DNA of 64,000 nucleotides from the NCBI RefSeq assembly GCF_044324785.1, contig NZ_CP172127.1; one strand, given 5' to 3'. How positions within the stretch are numbered: the first letter of the stretch is position 1; the number at the start of each line of letters is the position of its first letter. The position numbers and the translations under genes were made by a program. Source of the stretch: Escherichia coli. GTDB taxonomy: Bacteria; Pseudomonadota; Gammaproteobacteria; Enterobacterales; Enterobacteriaceae. The notes below the pieces were generated by a model. The model did no database searches. It saw only the letters and a list, made by a program, of their open reading frames with translations, and was not told where the DNA came from. Below, piece by piece: positions 4,104-32,991 of this stretch.

Positions 4104-5503
4104 ACTTCTCTCTGTAAATCCCGTTCCAGCGGTAACTCTACTGTAATGCTTACCCCGCCAAAAGGCGAATGGGCAGCAATAATGCGGCCATTATGGGCTT
4201 CAACAATGTTCAGGCAAATCGCCAGCCCCAGCCCGGAACCGCCGCTGGCGCGGTTGCGGGAACCTTCGGTGCGATAAAAACGTTCAAACAATTTTTGTAG
4301 CTGATCGTCACTGACGCCCGGCGCGCTGTCAGCAAAGGTCAGGCGCACCGTTTTGTCGTGCTGCTCGGCAGAGATTTTCAGGCTGCCGCCACTGTCAGTG
4401 TAGCGCAGGCTGTTTTCCAGTAAGTTATTGAATAACTGCATTAAACGGTCGCGATCGCCAAATACGGTAATACTGTCTGGCAGGGAAAATTGCAGTTTCA
4501 GGCCACGGCTGGCGAATCGTTCGCGAAATGCGCCGCCCGCCACTTCCAGCAGTGGGATCAAATCTACCGGTGCTTTTTGATAGGCGAGAGCGCCTTCATC
4601 AGACATCGACAACTGATGGAGATCGTCAACCAGTTTGGTCAGTGTACCGACCTCCGCCTGTAAAGACGCCACCGTCTCCGGCGTGAATTTACGCACGCCA
4701 TCCTGAATGGCTTCCAGTTCACCGCGCAGCACCGCTAATGGCGTACGCAGTTCGTGAGAAATATCGGCCATAAAATCGCGCCGCATTTGCTGGTTTTTCT
4801 CCAGCGTGCTGGCAAGCTGGTTGAAGTCTTGCGCCAGTTTGCCCAGTTCATCTTCACTGGTGGGCGTCACGCGGGTTGTGAAATCGCCCGCCGCCAGTTT
4901 GTGCGTGCCGTCCACCAGCCGTTTGACCGGGGCCAACAGACCACGCGCCAGCAGAAAGGTGGCGAGCGCCGCGAGTAACGTTGCCAGGGCGACAATCAGC
5001 CAGCTGGTTTGCCGCTGTTGTTTATCGAAATTGATATCAGTATTGCGGGTCAGTCGCTCAACAGGGGAGGCAATCACCGCACCCACTTCCGCACCGTTGA
5101 CCAGAATGGGTCGCCGTGTACCGTCAGGTGGAATCGGCGCTCGCGGACCAACCAGCACTTTGTTGTTTTGATCAACCACCCAGAACTGAGTACGCCAGCC
5201 GTGTGGTGGCATACCCGGGCCGGGTTTATCTTCCGAATTATCGTGTTCAAATGAGCGCAGGATCTGAAAGACAAAGCGATCATTGTTGCGCAGGAAGCGC
5301 CAGTTGCCATGCTGCGCATACTGCTCGCCAAGCGCATCACTTAACAGTTGTAATCGCTGTTCATTACCATGCTTGATGTAATCAATAAAGCCACGCTCAA
5401 AACTGATACGCACCGCCCAGTGCATACTGATCAGCAAGACAATGCAGGTGGCGAAAATCGCCAGAAACAGTTTACCGGTAATACCGGGTCGCCAGAACTT
5501 CAT
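4100..5503 (-). CDS. baeS: sensor histidine kinase BaeS, 467 aa
   Basis: TM segments, H-box (SHELRTPL) and ATPase domain. Position between mdtD and baeR. Confidence 0.95.
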
Positions 5504-29609: not shown

Positions 29610-31193
29610 TCACACCTCGTACTCCATCTCGCCATCCTTACGCAGCGGAATAATTTGCACCTTCTGCACGCGATGGCTTTCCACCTGCAACGTTTTAAGC
29701 AAATAATCTCCCACCTGCACTTCTTCGCCAGGTTTTGGAATGCGCTGCAAATATTCCATCAATAGCCCGGCAATGGTGTGATATTCACGTTTCTCGTCCA
29801 GCGGCAGCGGCACATATTGCACCAGATCCTCCAGCGGCATATGACCATTCGCCGTCCAGGAACCGTCCGCATTCTTCTGAATATCATGGCGGGCGTCGAT
29901 CTCTTCCACTTCGTTCGGTAAGTTACCGGCAATGGTTTCTGTGACATCACTTAATGTCACAATCCCTTCCACCGAGCCAAACTCATCCACCACAAAAGCA
30001 AAGTGTGTGCGGGCATTACGGAACTGCTCCAGGGCAGGTAACAACGGCAAGGTTTCCGGGAACACCAGCGGCTGGCGAATCAACACCCGCAGGTTGAGCG
30101 GTTCGCCGCGCAGAGACTGTTGTAGCAGGTCGATAACGTGAACAACACCGAGCAAATCTTCCGCGTCGTCACCGTCGGTAACCACCAGCCGCGTATGCTG
30201 ATTTCGCTCCAGCAACTGGCGGATTTCCTCTTCCGGCGCGTTGAGATCGATATGCTCAATATCGTGGCGCGACGTCATAATGCTGCTGACGGTACGCTGG
30301 TTAAGATTAAGGACCCGCTCAATCATCCGCCGCTCCTGCGGATTAAAGATCTGCTGGTTACCATGATCCACCAGCATGGACGCGGTTTCGGCGTCCAGTT
30401 CCGCATCTTCTTTTTGCCCGCTAAGCAGGCGCATTACCGCTTCGGTAGTCCGCTGGCGCAGCGTCTGGTTAGCGGAAAGAAAACGTCGCCGGTTAAAGAT
30501 AGCCAACTGATTGAGCGCCTCGATCATCACCGAGAAACCAATGGCAGCGTACAGGTAGCCTTTCGGAATGACGAAGCCGAAACCTTCCGCCACCAGGCTA
30601 AAGCCAATCATCAACAGGAAGCTTAAGCAGAGAATAACGATGGTCGGGTGACTGTTAACAAATTGCGTTAACGGCTTGCTGGCCATCAACATCAGGCTAA
30701 TAGCGATAACCACGGCGGCCATCATGACCAGTAAATGGTCGACCATCCCGACGGCGGTAATCACCGAGTCGAGTGAGAAGATGGCGTCCAGTACCACAAT
30801 TTGTGTCACCACCCCCCAGAACTTCGCACCTTTGCGTTGTGTGGGGTTATTGCTGTCTTTCCCCTCCAGCCGTTCGTTCAGCTCCATCGTGGCTTTGAAC
30901 AGCAGGAAGAAACCACCAAACAGCATGATTAAGTCGCGGGCGCTAAAGGTAAACGAGCGGAAGCTGAACAGCGGTTGAGTCAGGGTGACCAGCCAGGAGA
31001 TAGACGCCAGCAGTAACAGGCGCATTAACATCGCCAGCAGCAGCCCGGTAACCCGTGCGCGGTCGCGCTGCTTCGGCGGTAGTTTTTCGGCGAGGATGGC
31101 AATAAAGACCAGGTTATCAATGCCGAGGACCAGTTCGATCACAATCAGCGTGATTAACCCGGCCCAGATAGACGGATCGGCAATCCATTCCAT
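29610..31193 (-). CDS. yegH: TerC-family membrane protein with CBS/CorC domains, YegH (527 aa from ATG 31193)
   Basis: Translation from the internal ATG reads [30 protein letters not shown]... (TerC), with a C-terminal CBS/transporter-associated domain. Confidence 0.88.
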
Positions 31194-31634
31194 AGTAAGT
31201 ACAAAACCTATTCGTTGTATGACAAATGTCACAATTCGATCATGGATAAATCGGGGCAAAAATGCAATGTTGCAGCACTATTTATCTCATATTATTTGAG
31301 GGTAATAACCTCACATTATCCCTGAATTAAAAGTGGTAATAATAAAACATTATTTAAGAAATATCGCATGTGGAGACACAGTATTAAATATTGTCAACCT
31401 AAAGAAACTCCTAAAAAACATATTGAATGACACTTAATATAATTCTTAAAAATAGCCAATTGCCGAATTGTTACCTTGCCTGCTATTCCGTTAGCTGTAA
31501 CACTTCCTCCTGCATTATTGGAGAGCCAATATTCAATTACCATAATGTCACCTTATATTCGGAAGTTAATTTCCGCAATAACCCTTTCTCATCAACGATT
31601 GTATGCAGAGAGGGTTTGAAAAATTGAGCTAAAT

Positions 31635-31673
31635 CAGTGTATTGGTAGCTAAAAAGCCAGGGGCGGTAGCGTG
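31635..31673 (+). promoter_or_regulatory. JUMPStart element with ops (RfaH antitermination) site upstream of the colanic acid operon
   Basis: CAGTGTATTGGTAGCTAAAAAGCCAGGGGCGGTAGCGTG contains the canonical ops GGCGGTAGCGTG, ~180 bp upstream of wza. Confidence 0.7.
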
Positions 31674-31851
31674 TCTGGATGCCTGAAAGACCAGTCTGAA
31701 TTATTCTGTCAATAGCCTGCGGATGAAATCAATTTTTTTAGGACTGATGCCAGTTAAATTTTTATTCAATTAACTGCAAGGTAAATGTGCATGGCGACAT
31801 TGCTATTAATAGTGCACAGGATAATTACTCTGCCAAAGTGATAAATAAACA

Positions 31852-32991
31852 ATGATGAAATCCAAAATGAAATTGATGCCATTATTGGTGTCAGTAACCT
31901 TGATAAGCGGTTGCACAGTACTTCCGGGCAGCAATATGTCTACGATGGGTAAAGACGTCATCAAACAGCAGGACGCTGATTTCGATCTCGACAAAATGGT
32001 GAATGTTTATCCGTTGACCCCGCGCCTGATTGATCAATTACGCCCACGACCCAACGTAGCGCGCCCCAATATGACGCTGGAAAGTGAGATCGCGAATTAC
32101 CAGTATCGCGTCGGGCCGGGGGACGTTCTTAATGTCACCGTCTGGGATCACCCGGAACTCACCACGCCAGCCGGTCAGTACCGCAGCTCCAGCGACACCG
32201 GCAACTGGGTACAGCCTGACGGCACTATGTTCTACCCGTATATCGGCAAGGTTCACGTCGTGGGGAAAACGCTCGCTGAAATCCGCAGTGATATTACCGG
32301 GCGCTTAGCGACGTACATCGCTGACCCGCAGGTGGACGTTAATATCGCCGCCTTCCGCTCACAAAAGGCCTATATCTCCGGACAGGTGAATAAATCCGGC
32401 CAACAGGCGATCACCAACGTGCCACTGACCATTCTCGATGCCATCAACGCCGCAGGTGGCCTGACCGATACTGCTGACTGGCGCAACGTGGTGCTAACAC
32501 ACAATGGTCGTGAAGAGCGCATTTCTTTGCAGGCGCTGATGCAAAACGGCGACCTCAATCAGAACCGACTGCTTTATCCTGGCGATATTCTCTACGTGCC
32601 GCGTAATGATGATCTGAAAGTATTTGTGATGGGTGAAGTTAAAAAACAGAGCACCCTGAAAATGGACTTTAGCGGCATGACCCTGACTGAAGCCCTGGGT
32701 AATGCTGAAGGCATCGACATGACCACCTCCAACGCCAGCGGCATCTTTGTCATTCGTCCGTTGAAAGGCGAGGGCGGGCGTAACGGCAAGATTGCCAATA
32801 TCTACCAGCTGGATATGTCCGATGCCACATCGCTGGTGATGGCGACAGAATTCCGCCTGCAACCTTATGACGTGGTGTATGTCACCACCGCCCCGGTTTC
32901 CCGCTGGAACCGTCTGATCAATCAGTTGCTGCCAACTATTAGCGGTGTCCGTTACATGACGGATACAGCCAGCGACATTCATAACTGGTAA
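31852..32991 (+). CDS. wza: outer membrane polysaccharide export lipoprotein Wza, 379 aa
   Basis: Lipoprotein signal (LISGC) and recognised Wza sequence. First gene of the colanic acid cluster. Confidence 0.95.

Follow-up and report, generated by a model that had tools for sequence, protein, structure and literature searches.

Three RcsAB-type boxes probably precede a weak sigma-70 promoter in the regulatory region of the Escherichia coli colanic-acid operon

The interval between yegH and wza in the Escherichia coli DNA analyzed here (the window, a stretch of 64,000 nucleotides) is the promoter region of the colanic-acid (cps/wca) operon, a region that was already known and that a preliminary description of this DNA had recognized correctly. 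We consider it quite likely that, within this known promoter and leader, the sequence flagged earlier as a weak RcsAB-box candidate (box A) stands second in a row of three RcsAB-type boxes upstream of a weak, activator-dependent sigma-70 promoter, and that the region operates by the established Rcs/H-NS/RfaH mechanism. Rcs envelope-stress signaling has production of the colanic-acid capsule as its classic output, and this promoter serves as the standard reporter for it; confirmation of the region brings no new biology. The footprint across genera described here is of practical use as a map of the bases that matter: those of the three boxes, of JUMPstart, and of what is likely the true core promoter.

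The wza gene, the first of the colanic-acid operon, is a 379-aa ORF on the plus strand (31852-32991) that is annotated as Wza in both K-12 and O157:H7. Divergently, yegH starts on the minus strand at an ATG at 31193, assigned by correspondence with K-12. Since the ATG of wza is at 31852, the interval of non-coding DNA covers positions 31194-31851 (658 bp), a definition that rests on the ORFs, the K-12 annotation, and the alignment. In K-12 MG1655 the annotated starts are 2137243 for wza and 2137902 for yegH, and the interval aligns without gaps to NC_000913.3 2137244-2137901 at 98-99% identity; no base differs from K-12 in boxes A, B, or C, in the core promoter, or in JUMPstart. Over 31150-31900 the closest relative is O157:H7, at 99.5% identity, with yegH and wza underlying the match, and this 751-bp query is matched in about 4818-4838 of 5426 complete E. 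coli genomes.

The preliminary description placed a leader of about 590 bp upstream of wza. A regulatory region does lie there, but the interval measures 658 bp, and the boundary that had been drawn at 31260 marks where a TTG-extended ORF ends. The transcribed leader is likely to be the roughly 340 nt next to wza, and the remainder upstream regulatory DNA. That the region is very AT-rich is borne out by a G+C content of 34.8% for the interval, against 49.6% across the window; successive windows of 200 nt contain 30-34% G+C over 31200-31600, compared with 50-59% in the flanking genes.

The flagged sequence, CCTAAAGAAACTCCTAA, is present exactly at 31398-31414 on the plus strand, as had been described, and the wza ATG follows 438-454 bp downstream. 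The RcsAB-box consensus given at that time, TaAGaatatTCctA, agrees with the published one (PMC4325325), and the match is indeed partial: the core TAAAGAAACTCCTA (31400-31413) agrees at 10 of 14 positions and at five of the six capital positions, departing from the consensus at capital position 4, where it has A instead of G. Matches of this quality are expected by chance in AT-rich DNA. First-order Markov shuffles of the region predict 1.4 matches of at least 10/14, where three are seen (P = 0.2), and 7.8 matches of at least 9/14, where eight are seen; the motif TCYTAAAA is not rare, with eight occurrences in the window against 4.5 expected. Because the match counts agree with the shuffle expectation, consensus matching is unable to pick the site, and we rejected the consensus match alone as evidence for box A. 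The support for box A is instead its conservation across the family, since that, unlike the consensus score, exceeds chance.

We collected 80 loci with close relatives of Wza, from about 18 genera of Enterobacteriaceae, and aligned the 480 nt upstream of ops as 72 distinct sequences including the window; conservation was scored in the 69 sequences from outside Escherichia, as their identity to the window. Upstream of wza, short conserved blocks alternate with unconserved spacers (n = 72). The elements, namely boxes C, A, and B, TTGTCAA, and the -35 and -10 blocks, score 0.71-0.96, versus 0.22-0.42 for the spacers. Reading toward wza, the values are 0.71 for box C, 0.31 for the spacer 3' of it, 0.96 for TTGTCAA (31391-31397), 0.79 for box A, 0.22 for the spacer between boxes A and B, 0.88 for box B, 0.42 for the spacer 3' of box B, 0.92 for the CCTTGCCTG block (31474-31483), 0.85 for the TTAGCTGTAACACT block (31491-31506), 0.33 for 31512-31634, and 0.88 for JUMPstart. 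When non-overlapping 14-nt windows 5' of JUMPstart are ranked, the top four are the -35 block, box B, the -10 block, and box A. Distances between elements are also kept: boxes C and A lie 45 ± 1 bp apart in 60 of 71 sequences, boxes A and B 34-35 bp apart in 67 of 71, and box B and the -35 element 40-41 bp apart in all 71, with the distance from the -35 element to ops variable (172-209 bp).

Could this conservation reflect a small coding gene? We give this explanation almost no credence. In many RefSeq E. coli records (for example, WP_162829205.1), the minus strand at 31394-31543 is annotated as encoding a 'hypothetical protein' of 49 aa. Only 5 of 71 orthologous segments, however, retain an ATG-started reading frame of 45 aa or more, and in 31 of them it is shorter than 10 aa; moreover, the conservation takes the form of short blocks parted by unconserved spacers with 1-bp changes in length. 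The minus-strand ORF was rejected as the cause of the conservation because so few segments keep it, and for the same reason the gene call is probably spurious. As annotated, the ORF spans boxes A and B together with the core wza promoter.

Box A, with its adjoining AAAAA tract, occupies 31400-31418 on the plus strand and is probably of RcsAB type. Its right half is TCCTA in 62 of 71 sequences, TCTTA in five, and TCCGA in four, with the A-tract directly 3' of it, so that the box contains the RcsB half-site TC(C/T)TA, equivalent to TA(G/A)GA. The left half is variable (n = 71), reading TAAAG in 26 sequences and TCAAT in 18, with TGAAG, TGAGG, and TACGG found in a few each. At the orthologous position some genera, including Atlantibacter, have TGAGGCTAATCCTA, which fits all six capital positions. 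The neighboring TTGTCAA, whose reverse complement is TTGACAA, is nearly invariant, and in every sequence with both motifs its GTCAA precedes the TCCTA of box A by exactly 16 bp. Separately, TTGACA, the reverse complement of TGTCAA, forms a perfect -35 hexamer on the minus strand. We rejected it as the -35 element of a divergent promoter, as no conserved minus-strand -10 lies at 16-18 bp, the spacer between box C and TTGTCAA being unconserved.

Two further boxes accompany box A. Box B, TAATATAATTCTTA with an A-tract, is an RcsAB-type element at 31435-31452 on the plus strand (core 31435-31448) that matches the consensus at 10 of 14 positions on either strand and lacks the G at position 4; its right half is TCTTA in 69 of 71 sequences and its left half TAATA in 59 of 71. 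Box C, TAAGAAATATCGCA, is RcsAB-like and lies at 31355-31368 on the plus strand, matching at 9 of 14 positions and at all six capitals. It carries a strong RcsB-type half-site on the left, TAAGA here and TAGGA in most genera; across the family the left half is TAGGA, TAAGA, or TCGGA in 49 of 71 sequences and the right half TCGCA in 45 of 71. In Atlantibacter box C is TGAGGATATTCCTA, which, like the TGAGGCTAATCCTA of its box A, would make a good RcsAB box. All three boxes thus have one strict and one loose half, and the strict halves are TA(G/A)GA on one strand or the other, with box C oriented one way and boxes A and B the other. In crystals of RcsB with flhDC DNA (TTAGGAA / TCTAAGA), residues K180 and S184 of RcsB contact G and A bases of this half-site (PMC5829831).

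Comparison with other Rcs-regulated promoters supplies counterparts for boxes A and B. Upstream of K-12 rcsA we find TAAGGATTATCCGA followed by AAAA, a match of 10/14 with 6/6 capitals, and TAATATAATTCCGT 33 bp upstream of it. The RcsA-RcsB site of rcsA consists of two boxes, of which box1 overlaps TGAATTGCCATTAATATA, and is placed in AT-rich, H-NS-bound DNA some 170 bp before the rcsA start (PMC11879457). The first of these boxes and wza box B have an exact 12-mer, TTAATATAATTC, in common, which falls within a local alignment of 26 nt; the second, TAAGGATTATCCGAAAA, agrees with wza box A in its right half and A-tract. The two promoters are alike in having far-upstream boxes in AT-rich DNA; rcsA, however, has two boxes, about 33 bp apart, in the reverse order, with the B-type box upstream of the canonical one, and it lacks both box C and TTGTCAA. 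Upstream of K-12 yjbE are TGAGGTTAATCCTA and TTCCAATTATCCTA, each followed by AAA, and yjbEFGH and the colanic-acid operon are both RcsA-RcsB targets (PMC5461412). By sequence, the yjbEFGH upstream sites TGAGGTTAATCCTAAAA and TTCCAATTATCCTAAAA have TCCTA and an A-tract as in wza box A, and TGAGGTTAATCCTAAAA is nearly identical to box A of Atlantibacter; the region has neither JUMPstart nor TTGTCAA, and its spacing is unlike that of wza. The matches at rcsA and yjbE thus provide both box A and box B with a counterpart elsewhere among RcsA-dependent promoters.

The RcsAB/RcsB box of flhDC, TAGGAAAAATCTTA, has half-sites of the same kind as the wza boxes (TAGGA or TAAGA), but differs in having two good half-sites, in binding RcsB homodimers, and in repressing (PMC5829831). 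In each wza box, in contrast, a strong half-site is paired with a weak one, as a heterodimer with RcsA would lead one to expect, and the box would be activating. An extended right half with its A-tract, (A/T)TCC(T/G)AAAA, is common to RcsA-dependent K-12 promoters, occurring at positions 372-418 of the rcsA upstream segment and at 343-356 and 479-492 of the yjbE upstream segment. Comparison of the letters suggests that the functional RcsAB box may be longer than the published 14-mer.

The variable left half leaves room for another reading of box A, which could be a lone RcsB half-site or the site of another protein. It might then be no RcsAB operator at all, the mapped box being C or B, and box A would be kept for some other reason, for example as the site of another protein acting together with TTGTCAA, or because its A-tract serves as a bend or a UP-like element. 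We regard this as rather improbable. It draws on the fact that boxes B and C match the RcsAB consensus about as well as box A, on the left half of box A, which usually lacks the G at position 4, and on TTGTCAA, whose fixed 16-bp distance from TCCTA and absence upstream of the K-12 rcsA and yjbE boxes hint at a wza-specific composite site. Set against these points, the invariant part of box A is exactly the RcsB half-site plus A-tract of yjbE and of rcsA box2, and the full TGAGGCTAATCCTA occupies its position in some genera. With its conserved TCCTA, its fixed spacing, and its counterparts at rcsA and yjbE, box A behaves like a genuine RcsAB-type box. The candidate that was flagged as weak is thus very probably a real Rcs box as judged from these features, although it is one of three such boxes and not the only one.

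Downstream of the boxes we place a putative sigma-70 core promoter at 31476-31504 on the plus strand. It comprises a -35 element, TTGCCT (31476-31481), that matches at four of six positions, a 17-bp spacer, and a -10 element, AACACT (31499-31504), that matches at three of six, including A2 and T6, and is preceded by TGT, which provides the TG of an extended -10 (31496-31497). In the family the core blocks have the consensus CCTTGCCTG...TTAGCTGCAACAAT and are the most conserved sequences between box B and JUMPstart; the family -10 consensus, TGCAACAAT, matches at four of six positions. We infer a weak extended -10 promoter with a start at about 31511-31514, and such weakness is as expected of a promoter that requires an activator. 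A start there gives a leader of about 340 nt, places ops at about +150, and puts boxes B and A with their centers at about -70 and -105 and box C at about -150. Both -10 and -35 sites and an RcsAB box have been described for the wza promoter (PMC2478693).

The conserved -10 was missed by our scan tool because AACACT matches at only three of six positions. The sole promoter that the tool called, TGGAGA-16-CATAAT at 31519-31546 (one call, versus 3.5 expected from shuffles), is specific to Escherichia, with a conservation of 0.33 elsewhere, and was rejected as the ancestral promoter on the ground that it is unconserved outside the genus. This site, picked out by plain consensus scanning, is probably not the true promoter and may be either a lineage-specific secondary promoter of E. 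coli or a chance match. If it were the start region in E. coli, all positions would shift by about 40 bp.

A different placement of the start would alter the reading of the whole upstream region. The conserved blocks at 31390-31510 would then be part of the transcript and the start would lie further upstream, for example at a TATAAT in box B, which would put box A at about -43, as in a class II LuxR-type arrangement. E. coli does have a perfect TATAAT at 31438-31443, and in RcsB-only promoters the box lies just upstream of the -35 element (PMC5651002). In most genera, however, this hexamer is TATTAA, without the final T, and no -35 element stands at the right spacing from the E. coli TATAAT. 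The CCTTGCCTG...TGCAACAAT blocks, on the other hand, have the form and spacing of a -35 and an extended -10, at a fixed distance from box B, and the RcsAB boxes of rcsA are likewise remote from their start site, some 170 bp upstream of it (PMC11879457). We consider a start within box B very unlikely and retain the core promoter at 31476-31504.

The RcsAB box of the K-12 wza (cps) promoter was reportedly described by Wehland and Bernhard in 2000, and the K-12 wza promoter itself by Stout in 1996; these two studies are also said to report binding of RcsA and RcsB at wza and loss of activation on mutation of the box. In a full-text literature search, with the original mapping studies lying outside it, neither candidate box sequence was found in print, nor were the coordinates of the mapped wza RcsAB box. 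The published cps box reportedly lies about 100 bp upstream of the start site. With a start near 31512 this distance leads to box A, and with the promoter called by the scan tool it leads to box B. There is roughly an even chance, in our estimate, that the box mapped by Wehland and Bernhard is box A; box B is a tentative alternative, and box C an equally tentative one. The K-12 coordinate is 2169095 minus the window coordinate, which places box A at 2137682-2137695, box B at 2137647-2137660, box C at 2137727-2137740, and the putative start at about 2137583.

We propose that phosphorylated RcsB and its unstable co-activator RcsA would bind boxes C, A, and B, with RcsB reading the conserved TC(C/T)TA half-site and RcsA the variable half. 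The occupation of all three boxes, and which protein reads which half, are what we infer from the pattern of strict and loose halves. Binding of RcsA-RcsB would overcome H-NS silencing of this 35% G+C DNA and would help RNA polymerase to start near 31512. About 150 nt into the transcript, the non-template strand of JUMPstart/ops would load RfaH, which would then carry transcription through the operon of about 20 kb. In strain CFT073, ChIP places H-NS over the wza promoter, sigma-70 peaks there only in the absence of H-NS and StpA, and an RfaH ChIP signal is found at the wza ops site (PMC9765446). The box spacings of 35 and 45 bp correspond to no whole number of helical turns, which counts against this leading model.

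Beyond the established mechanism, it is possible, if doubtful, that what drives the colanic-acid promoter is, instead of one RcsAB box, a family-conserved, rigidly spaced, enhancer-like array made up of three half-site-anchored Rcs boxes and TTGTCAA. Within such an array, box B may belong to the same G-less subclass as rcsA box1. If the array is real and has not yet been dissected, it would imply cooperative or stepwise occupancy by RcsA-RcsB and an extra factor at TTGTCAA. The rigid architecture of three boxes plus TTGTCAA across the family is the only mildly new point of our analysis, and it may already have been described.

In the leader, the JUMPstart/ops element named in the preliminary description is found at full length. 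Rfam model RF01707 matches 31635-31673 on the plus strand with 57.3 bits (gathering score, 35; E = 3.8e-12) and is covered from position 1 to position 38 of 38, and the ops 12-mer, GGCGGTAGCGTG, matches at 31662-31673 on the plus strand, which is the non-template strand. The JUMPstart model is 39 nt long and includes the ops sequence GGCGGTAGNNTG. The ops element lies 179 nt before the wza ATG, and this placement is nearly constant in 71 of the 80 related loci. In its full-length match and its position in the leader of a long polysaccharide operon, the element is the same as in JUMPstart/ops-RfaH antitermination (RF01707; Hobbs and Reeves 1994), and we found no difference between the two.

Three further conserved blocks lie in the leader 3' of ops, at 31697-31714 (GAATTATTCTGTCAATAG), at 31734-31758 (TTTTTTAGGACTGATGCCAGTTAAA), and at 31814-31851, the last being the 38 nt that precede the wza ATG. 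None of the three has a match in Rfam. The block at 31734-31758 holds another TCCTAAAA, on the minus strand at 31736-31743. An IS1 element between JUMPstart and wza enhanced the sedimentation resistance of a mutant that overproduces colanic acid (PMC8117528).

At the other end of the interval, the family alignment contains conserved blocks within 31219-31269, proximal to yegH. They include a palindrome, TGACAAATGTCA (31220-31231), for which most genera have ATGACAATTGTCACA, as well as GATCATGGATAA (31238-31249) and CAAAAATGCAATG (31257-31269). These blocks are probably the promoter and operator of yegH.
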